Shown in pieces: positions 3,357 through 13,245 of a stretch of DNA of 32,000 bases. The stretch spans positions 77,756-109,755 of the forward strand of contig NZ_JAKZGS010000004.1 in NCBI RefSeq assembly GCF_022549695.1, read 5' to 3'. The notes beneath the pieces are model-generated. The model worked only from the letters and a program-made list of their open reading frames with translations, searched no databases and had not been told where the DNA came from. Position 1 is the stretch's first letter. Each line of letters opens with the position of its first letter. The position numbers and the translations under genes are program-made. Source of the stretch: Belliella calami. Lineage in GTDB: Bacteria; Bacteroidota; Bacteroidia; Cytophagales; Cyclobacteriaceae.

Positions 3357-3879
3357 TTAAATCCTAAAGCAATGGGTGGGAGATGTCATGCCCAAATCAA
3401 AGCAAAATGTCTTGATTAGATATTTCTGCATTTTCTTTGATGCTGCGGCGGCCGAATGAAGTAAATTTGATCTGTGTCTACAATAAGTTCTAAGCTCTTC
3501 TGTCTGGCCATCTGGCAAAAAACTTCCAGTTAGTAACCCCAATGTGTGCAGTTTTTGAATCCCTGCCTGACGGCAGGCAGGCACTGACAGTCCAAGACAT
3601 CAGTCTTTTTACCTTTGATGTTTTTGGTGAACTTACCATTACATAATATAAGATGGAACCCTTTTGAAAGCAAGACTGCATAGAGATTTTGCCAGTATGT
3701 CCCTGTACTTTCCATCGCTATAGTTTTTACATTCTTTTCCTTCAACCAATCTGCCATAGCAAACAAATCTTGATTGAATACCCCAAATTCCCGAACATCA
3801 TGCTCGGTTTGACCTACTGCTACCCAGTGGGAGCGACTGCCGACATCACATGCGAAGCATTCATCGACACCAAATAAAA
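3357..3879 (-). pseudogene. IS110-family transposase (DEDD/RuvC-like N-terminal domain), decayed
   Basis: Joining the minus-strand frames gives LFGVDECFACDVGSRSHWVAVGQ...KTIAMESTGTYWQNLY...GKKTDVLDCQ // WIQKLHTLGLLTGSFLPDGQTEELRTYCRHRSNLL, the IS110-family signature. There is no start codon. The frame is broken at 3562-3581 by a GC palindrome (CCTGCCTG-ACGG-CAGGCAGG). There are stops further downstream, and the C-terminal domain is not recognisable. Confidence 0.75.
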
Positions 3880-4102: not shown

Positions 4103-4243
4103 GCGCCCATGCTCTTCGATTACTCGAGGGCAACATTTCTAAAATCGGCCTTGCTAAAAGGGTAGTAAATTACAAAAAATCTTGCCACGATGCTCTCAAA
4201 CGTTAGCTTACGAAATCAAGTTTTTTAATGTAGGGGGAATTGC

Positions 4244-4377
4244 TGGTAACAGCGGGATTCAGCTTGGAGACGGCGGGCTTTCGGAGCCGTTCGCTTCCAG
4301 CCTACTCTTAGCTTCTTAAAGATACTGAATTTTCAATTTACTCTGAACTGCCCGCTGGATCCAAGGTGATGTTGGCG
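4244..4377 (-). repeat. attC-like cassette recombination site (copy g, most divergent)
   Basis: TGGTAAC-[8 nt]-TCAGCTTGGA-GACG-GCGGGC ... CCCGC-TGGA-TCCAAGGTGA-T-GTTGGCG; 134 nt; the arms pair as in the other copies. Confidence 0.7.
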
Positions 4378-4388
4378 AAAGTTGTTTT

Positions 4389-4787
4389 TTATCTAGTAAC
4401 CCAGTTTTCTAACCTAATACCGGAGATTCTATGAAACTCTTTCAAGTTTTCTGTCACCATTATGAGGTCTTTTTCTATTGCTGTGCAACCAATCAAGAGG
4501 TCAAAATCACTAATCTGCAAGCCTATAGATCTTAATCTGGCTTTCTCTTTTCCATATAGGTAAATTGCGCTAAAAATTGGAAGGATAACAACTTGATTAG
4601 CAAACACTTCAATTAAATCAAGATTCTTTTGAGGGTTTTTACTGTTTTCAGCTCCAAAAACTAATTCTGCCAAAGTAATTTCTGAAATAGCAAAACTCTC
4701 AGTACCTAGCTGTTCAAACTTTTCTATCAATCCATATTTCCCCCTTAAAAAATGGGTACAAATATTAGTGTCTAAAAGATACTTCAT
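4389..4787 (-). CDS. vapC: PIN-domain ribonuclease toxin (VapC-like)
   Basis: 132 aa. The acidic PIN residues are in context (LLDTNI..., ITLAELVFGAE, SDFDLLIGCTA). A 4-nt overlap links it to the small upstream ORF. Confidence 0.85.
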   Translation of the reverse strand: MKYLLDTNICTHFLRGKYGLIEKFEQLGTESFAISEITLAELVFGAENSKNPQKNLDLIEVFANQVVILPIFSAIYLYGKEKARLRSIGLQISDFDLLIGCTAIEKDLIMVTENLKEFHRISGIRLENWVTR

Positions 4788-5041
4788 TCGAAACCAAGGT
4801 TTTCTGTTTTTTCTATTCTGGATTCTCTAATTTCTTTAATGATCTCGTCCGAATCTTTATCATCTTCCCATGCTCCAAAAAGTGTTCGTAAATCCACCTT
4901 CTCTTCTTTTATATCCAGTGACTCGGTCAATTTAATGATTAGTTTTTTCTTGGAAAGATTATCCAAACCTTTCAATAGACCAAAATACTTTTCTATTGCC
5001 TTGTTATTTAATGTGAGGTTTGCCATGCTTTTTTTCTTCAA
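4784..5041 (-). CDS. putative antitoxin partner of the PIN toxin
   Basis: 85 aa, translationally coupled (4-nt overlap) to the PIN gene and rich in charged residues. The start may instead be the ATG at 5026 (MANLTL...). Confidence 0.6.
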   Translation of the reverse strand: MKKKSMANLTLNNKAIEKYFGLLKGLDNLSKKKLIIKLTESLDIKEEKVDLRTLFGAWEDDKDSDEIIKEIRESRIEKTENLGFE

Positions 5042-5082
5042 TTTACGGAATTAATGGATTGATGGTCAAATGATTTAGAAAA

Positions 5083-5553
5083 TTAAATTCCCAACTCTCT
5101 TTTCTTTTTCTGAATCAAGTCTCCCATGTCACTAAAATCTTTTACAAAACCAGATGCTTTGATAAATTCATTGTCGGTATTAAACCAATAAACTTTATTA
5201 TCCCCTTTAATTTTCAATTTATACAAAGGAGGGTAAACAAACTGTATGAGAGAAAGGGATTCCACTTCCATCCAATTTATTTTCCTTTCATACTCTCCAT
5301 TCTTTATAATCACATTTTGGCCTCCTAATTTTACTATCACAAATTTATCCTTAATAGCAATAAATATTGGGAAGCAGACTATTCCTATCACTCCAAAAAC
5401 TAACGTGATAACGATGTTTTGTGCCATTTTCTCACCATTTACCCAGAATAACTCAGGAAAGAACCAAGACAGAAGGGACGTAAATAACATTATTATTCCT
5501 AAGCCTAGAAACAGATATTTCAGTATGTGGTGATATAGATTATTGCTTTCCAT
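5083..5553 (-). CDS. hypothetical membrane protein (two N-terminal TM helices plus a small soluble domain; topology resembles bacterial PH/DUF304-type proteins)
   Basis: 156 aa with two clear hydrophobic helices (LFLGLGIIMLFTSLLSWFF; IVITLVFGVIGIVCFPIFIAI). It is cassette-borne and has no family signature I can name with certainty. Confidence 0.55.
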   Translation of the reverse strand: MESNNLYHHILKYLFLGLGIIMLFTSLLSWFFPELFWVNGEKMAQNIVITLVFGVIGIVCFPIFIAIKDKFVIVKLGGQNVIIKNGEYERKINWMEVESLSLIQFVYPPLYKLKIKGDNKVYWFNTDNEFIKASGFVKDFSDMGDLIQKKKRELGI

Positions 5554-5570
5554 GGCTTTTCTTCAATTTT

Positions 5571-5702
5571 CGATAACGGTTTGCAGCTACCCGAAGGTGG
5601 CGATTTCGAAGCGATTCACTGTCCGTCAAGCAGAAACTTTGATAGAAGCACAAAGCTTGATTTAACCACTGAACCGCCACTTTTGGGTAGGTGCTGTTAT
5701 AG
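5571..5702 (-). repeat. attC-like cassette recombination site (copy a)
   Basis: CGATAAC-GGTTT-GCAGCTACCC-GAAG-GTGGCG ... CGCCAC-TTTT-GGGTAGGTGC-T-GTTATAG; 132 nt. Confidence 0.8.
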
Positions 5703-5711
5703 GGCGTTTTC

Positions 5712-6176
5712 TTATTTTCGAATAAATATGTTTCCAAAATTTCTGCTGCTCGCCATTACTTTGTCTTTGTCCGTTTTGCGTCTGTATCTCGTTCTATCAT
5801 CATTTAACAACTGCAATATTTCGTTTCTTGATTTCGCTACAATTGTATCTGTTTTCGTTTCGATTCTTAAATAGTCAGTCCGCAAGTCACTTTCCTTTAT
5901 TTTTACGTTAAACATCATTCCTGTAAAAATCGATAATATTGTCATTGAGCTGTCAGGCTTTAAAACAACAGTTGTACTGTCCGAAGTTTGATTGTTCGGA
6001 TAATTGTGGATTTGCTTTTTGTCAGAATAATCAAGTCCTGGTCGTACTGTCACCTTCGCTTCATTTGCTGAAGTGTTGTGAATTGTCAATACTTTAAAAC
6101 CTTCGCAACTTGTCAGAAGTATTACGGTTGACAGAAATGTCAGTAATTTCTTTATTCGTTTCATTTCACATTTCAT
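5712..6176 (-). CDS. hypothetical lipoprotein
   Basis: 154 aa. It has a signal peptide with a lipobox (LLTFLSTVILLTSC). It is the only ORF in its cassette. Confidence 0.6.
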   Translation of the reverse strand: MKCEMKRIKKLLTFLSTVILLTSCEGFKVLTIHNTSANEAKVTVRPGLDYSDKKQIHNYPNNQTSDSTTVVLKPDSSMTILSIFTGMMFNVKIKESDLRTDYLRIETKTDTIVAKSRNEILQLLNDDRTRYRRKTDKDKVMASSRNFGNIFIRK

Positions 6177-6188
6177 TTCTTAAATGCA

Positions 6189-6320
6189 CCATAACGTTTT
6201 GGCGCTTGGCGCAGTGGCGGATTTCGGAGCACAAAACTTTCATTTAACCACAAAAGTTGATGCGAGGTAGAATGTTCAATTAACCACGTTATCCGCCATT
6301 GAGCCAAACTCCTGTTATGG
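6189..6320 (-). repeat. attC-like cassette recombination site (copy b)
   Basis: CCATAAC-GTTTT-GGCGCTTGGC-GCAG-TGGCGG ... CCGCCA-TTGA-GCCAAACTCC-T-GTTATGG; 132 nt. Confidence 0.8.
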
Positions 6321-6339
6321 GCTGGGCTTTCTGCTTTTG

Positions 6340-7278
6340 TCATAAATCTGTTTCTCTTTTTACAACTACCATTTCATCAAATCCGTGTTTTATCAATAAC
6401 TTTTTCAATGTTGTAATAAATCGTCTTAATTCTCTTTCTAGGATTGAGTCGTAATCAGGACTGAGTTTATTAAAGTCATTTGGTAGTAAGTTTGAAATAG
6501 CATAATTTATTCCCGTGATTATTGTCGGGAAGTCTATGAATACTAGGGTTTCATCTTTTATTTGAGTATCAATACTGATATTTCTCGGTCTGCCTGCATA
6601 TTTGAAAGAAACATTTTTAGTGTCAATAGAAGATTTCAATCTCTCGAATTGAAGATTTACGTCATCATTGATTTTGTCAGGAACGATAATATTTAGTTTG
6701 CATTTTTTGTATTTAATTCCATCAAGTTCGTACCCATTATTTTCAATTAAATAGCGACAAGTTGGAACAATAAGATTTTCTAAATAAACGGAAGCTAATG
6801 TAGCAGAAGGAAAGAAGTTGATTTCATCATCTGAACTGGAAATGAAGAGGTCCTGTATTTGCTTAACTGCATTTTCAAAACTGCTGTCATTACCATTTTC
6901 AAAAACTGCCAATGACAATCCGCCAAAATCAGAGAGAAGCTTAATCTCCTTGTCTACTAGAAATGCACATTTAGAAGTTCCTAAACGACCTGTAAACAAA
7001 CCTAATTCAAATAGGACGTTATCTCTTGGTTGCAACATTACTTGACCCCTAAATTCGACTTTATCATCATTTGTGCCTAATAAAATTCCAAAGTCAAATT
7101 GTAAAGTCGCTTTAAGCAAATCAGATAGAAAATTCTGATTAATCTTAAAAACCGAAGTGTCCCAAACCTTTTCGTTCCAAATAGTTACATCAAAGTCTTT
7201 TGATAAAATTGCTTTGGCTTTCTCTGCTAATTTTAGTTCTTCGGACGAAGAACCTATGAAAAGTCTCTTTTTTATCAT
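6340..7278 (-). CDS. CBASS effector, TIR-like domain fused to a bacterial STING-like cyclic-dinucleotide sensor domain
   Basis: The N-terminus (RLFIGSSSE...[19 protein letters not shown]) has the TIR-like signature seen in CD-NTase-associated effectors. The C-terminus ([15 protein letters not shown]...GRPRNISID...[16 protein letters not shown]...ELRRF) resembles bacterial STING domains. It overlaps the upstream nucleotidyltransferase by ATGA. Confidence 0.7.
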
Positions 7279-8333
7279 AATCCAAGCGTATTTCTTAGGT
7301 CAACAAATATTCCTTCAACTTCACCAAGTAATAATTTCAAATTCTCCAGTTTTTCTGGGTTATATCTAAAAATATACTCTCTTCCATCTACAGAGATAAT
7401 GCTATCGGATTTAGTTTGATTTGTGCAGATTTCTTTAATTTGATAATAGATTACGGGAACGAGTTCATAAAATGAAAGTGTTTGATATTTATCTACTTCA
7501 ATGTCATAGCATATAGCATTTATATCAAAGCTGCTTAAATCTATTTCTTGATTGGAATTTGCTTTGGTATTCTTCAAAAAACGAATCATTCTTTTTAGTC
7601 TTCCATTAGTATCTGAACTTCTTTCATTAATTCGTTTAATACTAAGAAATGGGAAATCTTTCTTGCCTTTTGAATGGGTTTCTTTATTATAAACTTGAAT
7701 CCCACGATATTCTCCTTTGTCATTTATAACAGAAGATACATCATCATACCAATTGGCAATTACAACATCAACTTCTCGGTTTAGACTTTGATTTTTTATC
7801 TTGATTGATTTTGGTTTTGTGGTGTCGCATATATCATATACATCTTCTAAAATTGTTTCACTATCAAGTCTTAATTGTCTCAAATCCTGAAGTGCGTTTC
7901 CTTGATACGAGCTTGTATTAACTTCCTTAACCATTTTATCAATGGAAACCTGTCTGTATCTATTTTTCTGCTCTACTGATTCAAGTATCTGCTTTATTTT
8001 AGGGGCATCATAAGTATAAAATTTGTCACAAATTGTAAGCAAGTCAATATCACTATAACCTCTAATATGTGTGTCGGTCATTACAGAGCCTTGATATTTA
8101 AAAACAACGTCAGTAAGTTTTTTTGATAAATGTTCTTTAACCCTTTCTCCTGCGTCTTTACTTTTTTGGGTGTATTCAGGTTCGACACCTTTCATTGCAA
8201 GTCTAATGTATGTCAATACTTCACTGTATGAAACAGTCGCAAGTTCATCAGAAAATGATTTTCTCAGTGCGAAGTTCTCTGGGTTGATTCGTCCCTTGAT
8301 ACTTTCTGTAAGTAGTTTATAATTTTTTGCCAT
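7275..8333 (-). CDS. cGAS/DncV-like nucleotidyltransferase (CD-NTase, SMODS-type)
   Basis: 352 aa with the Pol-beta-type catalytic set: YQGS-x11-DIDLL and a downstream REVDVVIAN. Translationally coupled to the TIR-STING-like gene. Confidence 0.7.
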
Positions 8334-8368
8334 TGTTCTATTTTATTGTGGTGTCGTTTTAGCCTTGC

Positions 8369-8500
8369 CCATAACGTTTTGGCGCTTGGCGAAGAAGCGG
8401 ATTTCGAAGCACCAAACTGTCTGCCAGCACTGAACTTGATACGAAGCACAAAGCTTCATTTAAGTACTGAACCCGCTTTTTTGCCAAACGCCTGTTATGC
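8369..8500 (-). repeat. attC-like cassette recombination site (copy c)
   Basis: CCATAAC-GTTTT-GGCGCTTGGC-GAAG-AAGCGG ... CCGCTT-TTTT-GCCAAACGCC-T-GTTATGC; 132 nt. Four AGCAC-type direct repeats start at 8408, 8426, 8445 and 8463. Confidence 0.85.
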
Positions 8501-8534
8501 GGTCGGCTTTCTTTTCTGTAGTCTGTGCTTTCCT

Positions 8535-9329
8535 TCATTTTGTCAAACTTAAGTATTTTTCAAAAAGTCTCGTGAACCCATATTCAAATTTCGGTTGTGT
8601 TTCGTCAACTATAACCCTTAAAGTTTCAATATCCTTTACAAGTCCTGTAATTCTTTCTCCTTTGTCTGAAAGGTCAGAAGAACTGTTTGTGAAGTCCTTT
8701 CTATATTTTCCAAAGTCGGGATAACCAACTTTGAAAGTGAAATCTTGATTTCCAACTGTGTCTGTAAACGTAAACGAACCTTCTTTAAGGTCTAAGTCGT
8801 AATGAAAGTCTGAATTGTTGGTCACAACCATTTTGTCATATATGAAATAATTGAACTCTTTATGAATTGTATCGCAACTGCCGTTTGTGTCAATGAAGCA
8901 ATACCTTACGCTATATGTTTCTGTTGGTAAATTGAATTTGTGGTAAAGTGCTGTAATCATCAAAAAATTTCTTTCTTCAGTCGCTTTGAAAATATCAACT
9001 GGTTGTAAATTGTAATAGTTGCTTGAAACTTGTCTTGCAATCCTAATTTGATTTGTTGGAAAATACTCGCCTTTTGGATAGAAGTATGTCAATAATGCAA
9101 AGTCAAGCAAGAGTATTATTAATAAAAATGTGGTCTTGCTGAATTTAATCTTGTCGCTGAACTTGTAATAAGTCCAAGCACCTATTCCGCCAATTAAAAA
9201 TATGATTGGGTAATAGACCAATAAACAAAGTCCGTAGCCACAAGGTGTCGGAAACAAACTCAATGTCAAAATTGGGATTGTCACACAGACCAAAAAAATG
9301 ATTATTGCAGGTACTTTCTTTTTATTCAT
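8535..9329 (-). CDS. hypothetical membrane protein (three N-terminal TM helices plus a soluble domain of about 170 aa)
   Basis: 264 aa. The hydrophobic N-terminus includes IIIFLVCVTIPILTLSLF, LLVYYPIIFLIGGIGAW and FLLIILLLDFALLTYF. No recognisable family. Single-ORF cassette. Confidence 0.55.
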   Translation of the reverse strand: MNKKKVPAIIIFLVCVTIPILTLSLFPTPCGYGLCLLVYYPIIFLIGGIGAWTYYKFSDKIKFSKTTFLLIILLLDFALLTYFYPKGEYFPTNQIRIARQVSSNYYNLQPVDIFKATEERNFLMITALYHKFNLPTETYSVRYCFIDTNGSCDTIHKEFNYFIYDKMVVTNNSDFHYDLDLKEGSFTFTDTVGNQDFTFKVGYPDFGKYRKDFTNSSSDLSDKGERITGLVKDIETLRVIVDETQPKFEYGFTRLFEKYLSLTK

Positions 9330-9362
9330 TGTCTGTCGTTGTGTGTCGTCTTTTAAGCTGCC

Positions 9363-9494
9363 GCATAACGTTTTGCAGCTACACGCAGGTGGGGATTTTT
9401 AGCACTGAACTTTATTAAAAGTACAGAATTTTGATTTAGCACTTCACTTTCATAGAAGCACTGAACCCCCACTTGCGTGTAGGTGCTGTTATGC
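9363..9494 (-). repeat. attC-like cassette recombination site (copy d)
   Basis: GCATAAC-GTTTT-GCAGCTACAC-GCAG-GTGGGG ... CCCCAC-TTGC-GTGTAGGTGC-T-GTTATGC; 132 nt. AGCAC-type direct repeats start at 9401, 9420, 9438 and 9457. Confidence 0.85.
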
Positions 9495-9502
9495 AACGTT
9501 TT

Positions 9503-11212
9503 TTATAATTCTTTTATTCTTTTCAGTAGTCGTTTATATGAATTAGGTAAATTTTTATGTGGCAAATTGTTAATTACGTGTAATAGAGTTTCGAGTTTTT
9601 TAAGTGACTTTTCTCTAATGTTTAAAATTTCATTCGTGTTTCTATTTGCAATTGGTACATTCAAAAAATTATAAATTAAATTTTGTGCTATTGTGGAAGC
9701 AACTAAATCCATTTCTAAATTGTATTTCATACAAATCACATCATATCTTTCTGAAATATCTAATGCACGACTATGATTTGATGTCAACAGTAATTCCAAT
9801 TGTTGTCGAGAGTTTTGATGGTGAAAAATCTCGTTAATCAAAGTTTCATTTTTGAATATGGTTTGATAATTAAAAAAGCCCGAACCATATCTGCTATTTG
9901 ACTTTTCTCCATTTTGATAGTTAAAGAAAAAGTCTTTATCAATAATTATCGTTTTCGGTATTTCCAAATCCCTTAAAAGGTAATATGCATATTTTAGTGA
10001 TGTAACGCCATCTAACTGTAAGATAGAAATCCCTTTTCTTTCGATTTTAACTCCTTTATTTTCTAAAAGTGTACTAAAAACTCCTGAATCAATTGTACTT
10101 TCCGTTACTAAAACGTGATTCGCAAAGAAAAACTCAGAGTTTCTAAATTTATGAAACTTGTCATACTGCAATCTTTGCAAATTGTAATGAATCCAAAAAT
10201 CGTCCCTTAACTGTAATAATTTACTCTTAAAGGCTCTTTGATTGTCTTTGACTTTTCTTATCAGTAAAATTTTTGTGTGGTCAAGTTGGTCAACAAGAAT
10301 AGTTGAGTGGGTTGTGAAAAGCACTTGAATATTACTGTTTTGAACTTGGTCAAAGAGCGTATAAATTAGTTCTTTTTGACCTTGTGGGTGTAAATTCGTT
10401 TCAGGTTCTTCAAGACCTATAATAAAATTTGTGTGTTTTAATTCGGCTAAATATCTGTAGATAGCGATAGCGACTAAACTTTGTATTCCACTACCACAAT
10501 CTTTTATATTAAATTCTTTGCCATCTTCATTAATTAATATCTCTAAATCATTTAAAAAAAGTTCAAAAGATATTGGAATGTTTGTTCCAATTTTGAATTC
10601 GAACCCTTTATTGGTTAAATACCGACCTTCTATTCCTTGAGCTACTTTTTTTAACGCATTTTTATTCAAATAATCAAATGCATCTTTAACTTTAGGTGTT
10701 AGTGTATCTCTCTTAGCTGTATGATTTGCAAAAAAGACTTTTAATAGTTCTCTCAAAACAGATTCACCATTTCTTTGATAAAATTCCGCAGTCCTATCTG
10801 TTGGTATCAGAACAAATTGCACATCTAAATTTAATTCATTCACTAAGTTATCTTGTGCTATTTCAAAAGTACCATTATTAAATACAAAATACTCCAATTT
10901 ACCACGTGTTTTATTGAACTCTTGTTTAATTTTAATAATGTCATTTACAATGTAAGGAGTGTAAATGACCTTGTTTGGTACATTGGCAAATGAAATTATT
11001 ATCTTCGGAATAGCTCTATTTGTAGAGTATAAATTTACACCTGAAAAGTAATATTGAAGTTCAATTTGAGGATTAAAAAAAGAGTTTAATGCTCTAAGTA
11101 TTGCTGTTTTGCCTGAATTGTTCTGTCCAACAATTCCAAGAATATCTTCAACATCGAAACTGCCTGATTCGATTGACCTAAATTTCGATATTTCTACTTT
11201 GCGTATTTTCAT
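9503..11212 (-). CDS. OLD-family nuclease (ABC-type ATPase + Toprim), single-gene (class 1-like)
   Basis: 569 aa. Walker A is GQNNSGKT, and the Walker B / D-loop region is IIGLEEPETNLHP. The C-terminal Toprim-type acidic motifs are HVLVTESTIDSG and TIIIDKDFF. It starts 10 nt after the preceding repeat. Confidence 0.75.
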   Translation of the reverse strand: MKIRKVEISKFRSIESGSFDVEDILGIVGQNNSGKTAILRALNSFFNPQIELQYYFSGVNLYSTNRAIPKIIISFANVPNKVIYTPYIVNDIIKIKQEFNKTRGKLEYFVFNNGTFEIAQDNLVNELNLDVQFVLIPTDRTAEFYQRNGESVLRELLKVFFANHTAKRDTLTPKVKDAFDYLNKNALKKVAQGIEGRYLTNKGFEFKIGTNIPISFELFLNDLEILINEDGKEFNIKDCGSGIQSLVAIAIYRYLAELKHTNFIIGLEEPETNLHPQGQKELIYTLFDQVQNSNIQVLFTTHSTILVDQLDHTKILLIRKVKDNQRAFKSKLLQLRDDFWIHYNLQRLQYDKFHKFRNSEFFFANHVLVTESTIDSGVFSTLLENKGVKIERKGISILQLDGVTSLKYAYYLLRDLEIPKTIIIDKDFFFNYQNGEKSNSRYGSGFFNYQTIFKNETLINEIFHHQNSRQQLELLLTSNHSRALDISERYDVICMKYNLEMDLVASTIAQNLIYNFLNVPIANRNTNEILNIREKSLKKLETLLHVINNLPHKNLPNSYKRLLKRIKEL

Positions 11213-11222
11213 TTAAAATGTT

Positions 11223-11354
11223 GCATAACGTTTTGCAGCTTGGCGAAGTGGCGGATTTTGAAGCACTTACTTTCAATTTTGCACAAATGTTTATTAGAAA
11301 TCCAAATGTTCAATTTAGCACCGAACCCGCCATTTTGCCAAACTGCTGTTACCA
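11223..11354 (-). repeat. attC-like cassette recombination site (copy e)
   Basis: GCATAAC-GTTTT-GCAGCTTGGC-GAAG-TGGCGG ... CCGCCA-TTTT-GCCAAACTGC-T-GTTACCA; 132 nt. Confidence 0.85.
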
Positions 11355-11370
11355 GCTGGCGTTTTTTCGG

Positions 11371-12003
11371 TTAGTTAAAGTTATAAAGATAACCAATTTC
11401 GTTTAGGTCAGCTTCAAGTTGTTCCCAATTTTCAAGTTCCTCAACGATTGTCAAAACCATATCTTTTGTCAGCGTTTTTCCGTTATAAATTTCTGTCACG
11501 GTTTCCAATGGAATTCCACTTTCTATAAAACTTTCGTCAAAATATTCTGTTGCCCAATCAACATAAGTTTGTGGATTTCCGTCAAAGATGCTCAACATTT
11601 CGTTAGAATTATCTTCGTAATTTTCGATTTGTCCAGTTTTCCAAGCTTTATTTTCGGTTGTCCAAACGCAAAATGTTGTTCCGATTTTTTTTACAGGTTC
11701 TCCAAAAATAAATTCGTCAAAAATAGAAGGTAAATCTTTTGTTAGTTTCTCTTTTTCTTGCTGTTGATATTCGTGAGCAAAACCATTTATTACACAGCCG
11801 TCTGCTCTAAATAAAATTAGCATTTGGTCGCCCGAACCATTTCGCATTTCGCAAAATTCTTCATTGTCTGCCCATTTATTGTTGTATGAATAATATCGAT
11901 ATTCCCATTCTTGTGAAAGAATTGCGTCTAAAACAGAAATTGCTTTGCAAATTGTCTGTAATTTTTGTCTGTCAGGTAAGTTTAGTTCTTTGGTTGAAAT
12001 CAT
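11371..12003 (-). CDS. hypothetical cytoplasmic protein (first cassette of the array)
   Basis: 210 aa, acidic, with no TM helix or signal peptide and no catalytic motif that I recognise. Confidence 0.55.
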   Translation of the reverse strand: MISTKELNLPDRQKLQTICKAISVLDAILSQEWEYRYYSYNNKWADNEEFCEMRNGSGDQMLILFRADGCVINGFAHEYQQQEKEKLTKDLPSIFDEFIFGEPVKKIGTTFCVWTTENKAWKTGQIENYEDNSNEMLSIFDGNPQTYVDWATEYFDESFIESGIPLETVTEIYNGKTLTKDMVLTIVEELENWEQLEADLNEIGYLYNFN

Positions 12004-12126
12004 TTGTTGTCTTATGTTTTTTCGTTTCGGTGTGTGTCGTTATACGCTTGCTGGTAACTTATATATCTGTCTGGAAAAACCAGACTTTAAATACCAATAA
12101 TAAGAAATATGTCTGGTTTTTCAGCT
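12004..12126 (-). other. candidate attI / array-proximal junction
   Basis: GCTGGTAAC at 12050-12058 is the exact reverse complement of GTTACCAGC at the far end of cassette 1's own repeat (11348-11356). The flanking inverted repeat is GAAAAACCAGAC (12074-12085) / GTCTGGTTTTTC (12111-12122), with an extra GTCTGG at 12069-12074. Confidence 0.55.
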
Positions 12127-13245
12127 CTATAAATCTAAATCTTCTAGCGGACTTGTAATCTGCTGAATAGACTTTTGGCTTACATGGGTATAGATCTCCG
12201 TTGTCTTGCTACTTTTATGTCCCAAAAGCTCCTGAATATACCTCAAATCTGTGCCTCTCTCCAGTAAATGCGTAGCGTAAGAATGTCTAAGCCAATGTGG
12301 TGTTACGGTTTTTTTTATACCTGCCTTTTTAACAGCATTTTTTAAAACCTCTGCCAAACTTTTTTCACTATAAGAGCCTCCTTTTTGCCCTTCAAAAATG
12401 TATTCTTTGGGCTTATAGGCTTTATAATATTTTTCGAGTTCAAGAATAAGAGGGGCGGGTAATGTTACCACTCTGTCTTTTTTTCCTTTTGCTTGTTTTA
12501 CCAATAACAAGCCTCTTTCTCTTTGAATGTGCTGAAATTTCAAAGCAAGTAATTCACCTCTTCTGAGACCACAAGCGTAAAGAAACATTAGCATTAATCG
12601 ATGCTTCAAATTCGTTGGGGCATTTAAAATCTTAGAAACCTCCTCTTTACTCAACACGTTTGGTAATAACTTCTCTCTTTTTGGCCTATAGACTATTTCT
12701 GGATTGAATTTGATACCTCTTCTATTCTGGAAAAATAATTTGATGCCATTTACCACCTGGTTTTGATACGAACTTGAATAACCTTTGGCTAAAATATACT
12801 CCTTATTGAATTTTTCAAGGTCTTCATTTTCAATTTCTTCGATAGCTTTATTACTCAAAAATCTTAAAAATATTCTTACAGCATCCTTATAGGTCTTTAC
12901 AGTACTTTTACTATACCGCTTATTCCGCATCCAATCTTCAAATTTACCAATCTCAATTCCCTGAGATGCGGTCAAATGAGGTAAACCTGGAGGGATCTTT
13001 GGAATCTCTACCTTTTTTAATGCTCTATAATCCAAACTTACCTTTCCTTCGAAAAATCCAATCATCTCGGTAATCCTTTCATCAGCGTAACTCACCCACC
13101 ATACCTTCTTTTTGGTATCCCAATTACAGCCTGGAAACTGCTTTACCATCTCCTTTAACTCAAAATCATAAGGAAACTCAATCCTAATAATTGGATTTTT
13201 TCCCATATAGTCATTTTTCAAAACCAGCTGTTTCATAAAAATCAT
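12127..13245 (-). CDS. tyrosine recombinase, Xer-like catalytic domain with an extra N-terminal domain; putative cassette-array integrase
   Basis: 372 aa. The catalytic residues are in context: ACGLRRGELL (R), KGKKDRVV (K), HWLRHSYATHLL (H-x-x-R), LLGHKSSKTTEIYTHV (H, Y), and a C-terminal SPLEDL. Only 87 aa separate the R-box from HWLRH. An alternative start is the ATG at 13236. Confidence 0.85.
   Translation of the reverse strand: MIFMKQLVLKNDYMGKNPIIRIEFPYDFELKEMVKQFPGCNWDTKKKVWWVSYADERITEMIGFFEGKVSLDYRALKKVEIPKIPPGLPHLTASQGIEIGKFEDWMRNKRYSKSTVKTYKDAVRIFLRFLSNKAIEEIENEDLEKFNKEYILAKGYSSSYQNQVVNGIKLFFQNRRGIKFNPEIVYRPKREKLLPNVLSKEEVSKILNAPTNLKHRLMLMFLYACGLRRGELLALKFQHIQRERGLLLVKQAKGKKDRVVTLPAPLILELEKYYKAYKPKEYIFEGQKGGSYSEKSLAEVLKNAVKKAGIKKTVTPHWLRHSYATHLLERGTDLRYIQELLGHKSSKTTEIYTHVSQKSIQQITSPLEDLDL

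Follow-up and report, generated by a model that had tools for sequence, protein, structure and literature searches.

Background

The prevailing view is that Bacteroidota have almost no integrons; surveys of the phylum with IntegronFinder found only lone integrases and one complete integron (PMC9024848). The integron subgroup of recombinases is defined by the IntI insertion, which is essential for integron function (PMC8138268). Accessory direct repeats have their nearest precedent in class 1 integrons, whose attI1 site contains DR1 and DR2. These direct-repeat supplementary integrase sites are dispensable for some reactions and stimulate attI x attC recombination (PMC8946536). Yet an integron-like cassette-capture platform appears to be common in Bacteroidota. 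It is described here from a stretch of 32,000 nucleotides (nt) of Belliella calami DNA (contig NZ_JAKZGS010000004.1), below called the window, in which attC-like repeats lie beside a gene for a tyrosine recombinase. Five copies of ~133 nt (a to e) lie on its + strand. Judged by sequence and predicted folding, the centre of these repeats is the terminal loop of an attC-like hairpin, and it contains a phased array of short direct motifs.

The repeats share much with attC sites, in particular with long ones such as Vibrio cholerae repeats (VCR, ~125 nt). Both are imperfect inverted repeats of similar length with AAC...GTT R boxes. In both, one strand folds, an unpaired spacer lies near the R box, crossover appears to occur at the R box and cassettes are circularly permuted. 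Units made of a promoter-less open reading frame (ORF) and a site are arrayed beside a tyrosine recombinase gene in both systems, and defence genes are among their cargo.

Anatomy and folding of the repeats

Site c (8369-8501, +) is a 133-nt attC-like hairpin site with covariance-model score of 142 bits. In 5' to 3' order it consists of the R box CATAAC.G, a 4-nt TTTT bulge, an inner stem of ~19 bp, the loop and, as 3' R box, T.GTTATG. Unpaired and 72 nt long, the loop occupies 8401-8472 (+), repeat positions 33-104. Remaining copies, all on the + strand, are site a (5571-5703, centre 5603-5674), site b (6189-6320, centre ~6221-6291), site d (9363-9495, centre 9395-9466) and site e (11223-11355, centre 11255-11326). 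Single-sequence and consensus folds agree in predicting an outer helix of 7 bp, in which cATAAC.G is paired with T.GTTATg, four unpaired nucleotides (TTTT or GTTT) on the 5' side only, an inner helix of ~19 bp, and a centre of 72-73 nt without conserved pairing. The whole stem amounts to 21-26 bp and closes the 72-nt loop.

A preliminary description of this DNA had held that the centre is neither palindromic nor self-complementary. This is borne out by consensus folds, which pair the outer stem only, whether they are made from the five copies or from 35 diverged types (centres <80% identical); moreover, folding energy of the centres is no better than that of shuffled sequences (mean z -0.38). 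In the 35 types RNAalifold predicted 21 pairs, with compensatory changes in 17 of them. The 5' AACG and the 3' TGTT are invariant or nearly so across these types, and a G.T wobble is found in all 35, on one strand only. Because these wobbles are on the + strand, it is this strand that forms the better hairpin; it is the non-coding ("bottom") strand for all cassette ORFs. Extrahelical L-box bases were searched for in the consensus fold and no conserved bulged base was found; the fold prediction displays a mismatch at stem columns 16/17 together with the conserved wobbles. As far as predicted folds go, asymmetry of the site comes from G.T wobbles and the 4-nt bulge, in place of extrahelical bases.

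A sixth site (4247-4378, +) was located with a covariance model made from copies a to e. It is terminal and degenerate (43 bits), with TAAC-A instead of AAC-G in the R box, an enlarged bulge and weak loop motifs, and with it the array ends distally. Close relatives of this site are present in other Cyclobacteriaceae (L056:11810, L001:5999).

Phased motifs in the terminal loop

The preliminary description had placed 10-mers of AGCAC type at regular distances in the centre. Those of copy c do start at 8408 (AGCACCAAAC), 8426 (AGCACTGAAC), 8445 (AGCACAAAGC) and 8463 (AGTACTGAAC), and those of copy d at 9401, 9420, 9438 and 9457, which corresponds to repeat positions 39/40, 58, 76/77 and 95. The loop is built of four head-to-tail units of ~18.5 nt each, with the core AGCAC-NN-AAC. 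Copy a likewise contains the four related motifs that had been attributed to it. For copies b and e the claim holds in part: three motifs are clear in each, and what had been taken for a longer AT-rich spacer is instead a degenerate fourth unit that keeps the phase (AGGTAGAATG, AATCCAAATG). Cores of copy b are AGCACAAAAC and ACCACAAAAG, followed by the degenerate unit and ACCACGTTAT; in copy e, it is the third unit that is degenerate.

In the whole window, AGYACNNRAY occurs 11 times against 5.2 +/- 2.2 expected, and eight of these matches are on the + strand within the five repeats, which represent 2% of the window. The top 11 matches of a position weight matrix (PWM) all fall within the repeats. 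The phased array in the window is more than chance. Tandem Repeats Finder called no array in the centres, since the units are too diverged (<70% alike); the periodicity is visible by autocorrelation and PWM only. MAFFT alignment of centres alone slid many sequences by one 19-nt unit, which shows that the units are interchangeable. This alignment was unusable for column conservation, and anchored and PWM-free statistics were used instead.

Conservation was examined in ~220 sites, 135 from genomes and 84 from metagenomes. Redundancy was removed at 75-80% identity, and kinship of sites still inflates some of the statistics given below. Length is 125-134 nt in 93/135 genome sites and 61/84 metagenome sites (~70%). 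The loop measures 70-74 nt in nearly all sites of this length class, including very diverged types, and it is poor in G (base composition A 0.34, T 0.29, C 0.21, G 0.16). Autocorrelation of 35 non-redundant centres gave two sets of peaks and no others, one at lags 18-19 with z of 5.9-7.6 and one at 37-38 with z of 10.3 and 4.2, so that the phasing of 18-19 nt noticed in the window is kept in further copies. With 40 types, z was 7.5-11.3 at lags 18-19 and 37-38. Since lag 37 is stronger than 18-19, two kinds of unit alternate. The commonest 5-mer of the loop is AGCAC, found 32 times against 2.6 expected (12-fold), while GTGCT does not occur on the same strand at all. Positions of AGCAC in the loop cluster at ~4-11, 24-31, 44-47 and 60-67.

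The first PWM had been fitted and scored on the same data and was thus circular. It was re-tested on unrelated metagenome sites. Autocorrelation of 35 independent metagenome centres gave z of 3.0-5.9 at the same lags; these centres contain AGCAC 14 times and GTGCT once, and their PWM score is 11.4, compared with 3.4 for the reverse strand and 2.0 for shuffled sequences. Motif and phasing are therefore conserved across copies as a strand-specific array, which occurs in many genomes and is confined to these sites. The pattern of conservation indicates that the loop is under selection for its length, its predicted unpaired state and its phased strand-specific motif.

Other loop architectures were encountered as well. 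A Flavobacteriaceae group of 13 types has a hairpin of the form GAAAATCC-GNNA-GGATTTTC, 8-10 bp long, inside the loop, flanked by two or three AGCA..AAC-like motifs; periodicity of 18-19/37 nt was not seen in this group. The architecture is represented in L046, L050, L053, L058, L065 and L078 (e.g. L053:19068-19196), and the hairpin may occupy either half of the loop. Longer sites form discrete classes of ~161 nt and 190-196 nt, in which extra hairpin modules are inserted in mid-loop, between units (L037:13548-20694; L076:13071-15749; L078:13830; L053:12901; L050:12586). At L078:13830 the insertion lies between units 2 and 3, resulting in a 2+2 arrangement.

Evidence for cassette recombination

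Sites were collected by a scan that ignores the centre and demands AACG...TGTT and pairing at no fewer than 15-16 of 18 arm positions, in 80 genome loci fetched with the recombinase family. As exact AACG and TGTT are required, degenerate sites such as the sixth copy of the window are missed. The scan retrieved 135 sites on the expected strand and 20 on the other. At a stricter threshold, 112 sites were found downstream of the recombinase gene (291 kb searched) versus one upstream (621 kb). Of 41 loci whose downstream sequence extends for 1.5 kb or more, 30 contain a site. In 39 of the 80, the contig ends within 1.5 kb of the recombinase gene, as expected of repeats that break assemblies.

Flanks of successive sites are related in a characteristic way. 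The 7 nt past the TGTT of a site are the complement of those 7 nt that precede AACG in the next one, with a mean of 6.19/7. Complementarity of at least 6/7 is reached by 85% of 79 adjacent pairs; the share falls to 4% when a site is compared with its own flank and to 3% in random pairs. The same relationship exists in the window between sites d and e, c and d, and b and c, and also between site e and the candidate attI (12048-12058). Such complementarity is the mark of circular permutation in cassettes inserted by R-box crossover. On this evidence from flanking sequences, together with stem covariation and location downstream of the recombinase gene, the repeats are cassette recombination sites, with predicted crossover at AAC.G, at the base of the stem.

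The candidate attI crossover region of the window lies at 12046-12068 (-), with the coding strand reading GATATATAAG|TTACCAGC. It fits the pattern TATAA-N2-3-AGTTR, which was found 80-130 nt past the recombinase stop codon in most related loci. This core is common to loci of both loop architectures (L003-L059 and the window). No AGCAC motif was found at the attI of the window or near the promoter and upstream region of the recombinase gene; sequences downstream of the gene in 24 loci (6.2 kb) contain AGCAC 4 times, compared with 7 on the opposite strand. One 11-mer, TTGCTGGTAAC, is present twice, bordering the last site on its outer side (4240-4250) and in the candidate attI crossover (12048-12058); this would fit a distal array end that retains the original attI half-site.

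The adjacent recombinase

The recombinase gene (12127-13245, -) is co-oriented with the cassettes and encodes a XerA-like tyrosine recombinase of 372 aa without the IntI-specific insertion. Its sequence matches the NCBI protein of Belliella sp. DSM 107340 with 100% identity. The protein passed the NCBIfam XerA model NF040815 (230 bits, cut-off 220) and failed both integron-integrase models, TIGR02249 (203 bits, cut-off 265) and PRK15417 (121 bits, cut-off 435). Alignments with integron integrases split in two at the position where the IntI insertion is expected. The closest solved structures by sequence are, in this order, XerA (5hxy, E 1e-58), IntI4 (2a3v), whose match is split in the same manner, and XerD. 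By these comparisons the recombinase is not an integron integrase.

In agreement with the preliminary description, the protein has an extra N-terminal domain on a flexible linker, i.e. a heterobivalent layout. The domain (~residues 1-78, coding positions 13012-13245, -) has the predicted fold b-b-a-b-b-a and is followed by a low-confidence linker up to ~residue 97. It is conserved over ~75 residues throughout the family, while the linker is variable. In the structural model the predicted local distance difference test score (pLDDT) of the domain is 71. The top Foldseek match is the HARP domain of SMARCAL1 (4o66, E 0.036, probability 0.89, template modelling score 0.37-0.51), followed by the damage-recognition domain of XPB. 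Pfam HARP (PF07443) is matched below threshold (17.2 bits, cut-off 25, E 0.0037), and 8/42 family members match it. These matches are weak singly and agree mutually, and the HARP-like assignment should be regarded as a lead only. Weak matches to Pfam DUF5710 were also noted in 15/42 homologues (12946-13245 in the window, -; best E 0.0027). The suggestion that the domain might be of a known arm-binding kind did not hold, as 0/42 members match the Arm-DNA-bind, Phage_integ_N or Tn916-type Pfam families (E <= 0.1). No other dedicated gene flanks the recombinase gene in the window.

Possible role of the loop

The site has invariant G.T wobbles in one strand of its stem, and the motifs lie in its loop. 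Most likely, therefore, they are read in single-stranded DNA (ssDNA) and not as duplex arms flanking a core. The N-terminal domain is the best candidate reader, because it is the sole dedicated extra part of the protein, is carried on a flexible linker and resembles junction-recognising domains. The loop may thus represent an accessory single-stranded module; its putative binding by this domain is in our opinion a serious possibility, somewhat short of an even one.

In the proposed mechanism, the site would fold and the loop would then be read as ssDNA by an accessory protein, namely the recombinase's own HARP-like N-terminal domain on its linker, possibly with one unit per protomer of a tetramer. 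Since the motif is strand-specific and its orientation relative to the crossover is fixed, binding could mark the recombinogenic strand and orientation; the complementary strand would show GTGCT. Binding could also help to keep the two arms together and thereby favour folding and synapsis. The loop module would in this manner replace the extrahelical bases and the IntI insertion of classical integrons, its effect being stimulatory or modulatory and not essential. The arm-type hypothesis of the preliminary description would so survive in a modified form: the phased array and the extra N-terminal domain are there, and attI lacks the motif just as lambda attB lacks arm sites, but neither a known arm-binding family nor duplex arms were recovered. 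The complete proposal, a widespread IntI-free cassette system of Bacteroidota with XerA-like enzyme and "single-stranded arm sites" read sequence-specifically by a HARP-like domain, is more tentative than binding as such, and we hold it to be rather doubtful as a whole.

Several observations weigh against reading of the loop by the N-terminal domain. The motif is degenerate (no position exceeds 0.8 bit), and many sites have lost the third unit. Within the same arrays, some 10-15% of sites measure only 65-100 nt, with short or palindromic loops (examples in L059, L007 and L017, and five sites of 83-85 nt on a Chryseobacterium plasmid). Since short sites share arrays with the others, the module must be accessory or optional, and the same recombinase presumably works on them without it. 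The Flavobacteriaceae group keeps ~130 nt, with part of the loop replaced by the small conserved hairpin. The same site types are found beside recombinases that are only 43-46% identical, so any recognition has to be tolerant. The HARP-like matches are weak (17.2 bits against 25; Foldseek E 0.036; pLDDT 71). Finally, a few recombinases seem to have no N-terminal domain (L032, L054, L069, L089, L096). These are truncated genes or single cases on tiny contigs, and their close relatives all have the domain; as the apparent exceptions are truncated, presence or absence of the domain cannot be correlated with the loop.

The tightly kept loop length of 70-74 nt in very diverged types, the four-fold organisation at ~18 nt and the unpaired, G-poor state would also suit a host ssDNA binder. 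A tetramer of single-stranded DNA-binding protein (SSB) would wrap ~65-72 nt and could take up one unit per oligonucleotide-binding (OB) fold, acting as a folding chaperone or a brake; wrapping would bring entry and exit points, hence both stem arms, together. SSB acts on folded attC in modes of 65 and 35 nt (PMC8946536), and 72 nt is, by our own numerical inference, near to the former. However, the low sequence specificity of SSB fails to explain a 12-fold, strand-specific excess of AGCAC at fixed phase, and the Flavobacteriaceae variant, with its in-loop hairpin and unchanged total length, as well as the short sites in the same arrays speak against it, so that we consider a host binder unlikely. 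About equally unlikely is a passive spacer, a tether of fixed length that blocks cruciform extrusion and permits folding only when DNA is single-stranded (replication, conjugation, transformation), its direct repeats being what is left of an ancient internal duplication (2 x 37 nt) and passed on by descent. Lag 37 is indeed the strongest, as duplication predicts, the information content of the motif is low, the module is dispensable in 10-15% of sites, and long terminal structures in classical integrons suppress the cruciform route and lower recombination under replicative conditions (PMC8946536). Yet the stems have turned over almost completely (17/21 pairs compensatory), and phase, motif, orientation and length of the loop have been kept nonetheless; this speaks for selection acting on sequence in addition to length. 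Predominance of AGCAC among 5-mers, absence of its complement on the same strand and replication of the signal in unrelated metagenome types are likewise at odds with a mere spacer.

Literal duplex arm sites of lambda-Int or IntDOT kind, with N-terminal domains bound to four double-stranded repeats and bridging to core sites, would account for the order of N-terminal domain, flexible linker, core-binding domain and catalytic domain, for the four direct repeats, and for the motif being absent from attI, as from attB. Arm-binding domains moreover define tyrosine recombinases of mobile elements (PMC8138268). Against this stands the missing match to arm-binding Pfam families, the fold search pointing to HARP and the XPB damage-recognition domain instead. 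Further, the repeats lie between two arms of a site that, by its conserved G.T wobbles, works folded on one strand and are therefore expected to be single-stranded in the active form, and a distance of 18.5 bp does not correspond to whole helical turns. We regard duplex arms as improbable. Still less credit, next to none, can be given to the idea of the preliminary description that the repeats are outward promoters or transcript-processing signals for the next cassette, or to their being termination signals. Each site does end 10-30 nt ahead of the next start codon on the coding strand, where a relaxed -7-like TAnnTTT is in excess (30 against 12.3 expected). In place of a sigma-70 scanner, the test employed the -33/-7 consensus of Bacteroidota from promoter studies in Bacteroides and Flavobacterium. 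The full -7 motif (TAnnTTTG) was present in just 8/53 sites and the -33/-7 pair in 0-1, and the core AGCAC-NN-AAC does not map onto this consensus. In addition, the G.T wobbles favour folding of the non-transcribed strand and not of mRNA, and there is no Rfam match. Reading of the loop as ssDNA by the N-terminal domain of the recombinase thus stays the explanation that we prefer.

Cassette array, spread and neighbourhood

Six cassettes form an array at 4251-12058 (-), with boundaries between AAC and G of the invariant AACG of each site. Starting from the recombinase gene, they encode a protein of unknown function (11371-12003, -), an Old-family ATPase-nuclease (9503-11212, -; E 5e-46), a membrane protein (8535-9329, -), a two-gene cyclic oligonucleotide-based antiphage signalling system (CBASS) with cyclase (7275-8333, -; E 9e-159) and TIR-STING effector (6340-7278, -; E 4e-119), a lipoprotein-like ORF (5712-6176, -), and an ORF (5083-5553, -) with a PIN toxin/antitoxin pair (4389-5041, -). 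The PIN toxin has a small upstream partner, and cargo of the cassettes includes anti-phage and addiction genes.

Some of these site types are widespread. Near-identical copies of site e occur in Arundinibacter (L063:17313) and Flavobacterium (L045:13287). The type of site a is also found in a Bacteroidales metagenome-assembled genome (L020), in Sphingobacteriales (L039) and on a Chryseobacterium plasmid (L081:6951-7080). Since the same types occur in different classes, sites, and presumably cassettes, move between hosts. The system is also plasmid-borne, as exemplified by this Chryseobacterium plasmid with its window-type site. On the same plasmid (NZ_CP041688.1, L081 8378-10354), a group II intron (RF02001, RF00029, ltrA) directly follows an attC-like 3' arm. 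It is located on the folding strand, opposite to the cassette genes, and recalls group IIC introns that target classical attC.

Other features surround the array in the window. Just past its distal end are two tandem tRNA-like sequences of ~125 nt (2688-2812 and 2859-2985, -), 171-173 nt apart. Each copy has an acceptor-like stem, a GGTTCGAATCC T-arm and an insertion of ~50 nt. The pair was recognised by neither ARAGORN nor Rfam, both of which gave no match in the window. Between the array and this pair are two overlapping ORF fragments of an IS110-family transposase (3357-3766, -; DEDD_Tnp_IS110, E 2e-9 and 3e-3), and this copy looks frameshifted or decayed. GC skew of the + strand is negative almost throughout the window (1-32000), where most genes are on the - strand. 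Accordingly, the leading-strand template may be where the folding strand is located, a placement reported for sedentary Vibrio integrons; gene orientation confounds this conclusion.

Significance of the system

The platform shows all sequence hallmarks of integron recombination and is common across Cytophagia, Flavobacteriia, Sphingobacteriia, Chitinophagia and Bacteroidia; it is also found on plasmids. Anti-phage systems, CBASS and Old among them, accumulate in its arrays. It would escape current tools, whose models fit neither its enzyme nor its site. We found no published description of this pair of recombinase and site in the searchable literature, which is incomplete, so that a prior description is possible; the integron-like cassette system of Bacteroidota is apparently undescribed. 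The frame AACG...TGTT together with the length of ~130 nt offers a simple cassette detector for genomes and metagenomes. No other part of the site is as distinctive as the loop module, which is also a defined target for mutation. If it is an accessory ssDNA array, it would represent a second, independent answer to the question of strand choice on a folded site. If a HARP-like domain reads its units, this would be a new mode of folded-DNA recognition by a tyrosine recombinase.

Comparison with known systems

The core-binding and catalytic domains of the recombinase are most like those of archaeal XerA and also resemble bacterial XerC/D. Xer recombinases, however, act on a single 28-bp duplex dif site, without an extra N-terminal domain and without linked cassette arrays. 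For the N-terminal domain, the HARP domain of SMARCAL1 and the damage-recognition domain of XPB are the best matches in sequence and fold, all of them weak. In the work on 4o66, HARP-type domains reportedly recognise DNA structure at junctions of single strand and duplex, and such a junction is also present at the top of the stem here. In contrast to the recombinase, those domains belong to ATP-driven translocases. To our knowledge, sequence-specific reading of ssDNA is not known for HARP or XPB domains.

Recombinases of lambda, Tn916 and IntDOT type have in common with this one an extra N-terminal domain on a linker and repeated accessory motifs in one partner site only. By analogy with arm-type sites, a role of the motifs in directionality or assembly is plausible. 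Known arm sites are nevertheless duplex and flank the core, whereas the motifs described here are inside the hairpin loop, and the N-terminal domain is outside arm-binding families. The DR1 and DR2 repeats differ in being two in number, located in the duplex attI and bound by the core domains of IntI1 with no extra domain, while here four motifs reside in the loop of an attC-like site.

Compared with attC itself, the terminal region is not a variable paired extension but an unpaired loop of 72 nt with conserved length and four phased strand-specific motifs. In ~70% of sites the terminal region is of this unpaired kind, and only the minority short class looks classical. The enzyme is not IntI, its gene is co-oriented with the cassettes, and extrahelical bases are not seen. 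As judged from these sequence comparisons, the system works like an integron and differs in the IntI insertion and in the variable paired terminal structure; it is hence a variant of integrons and not a member of the group.

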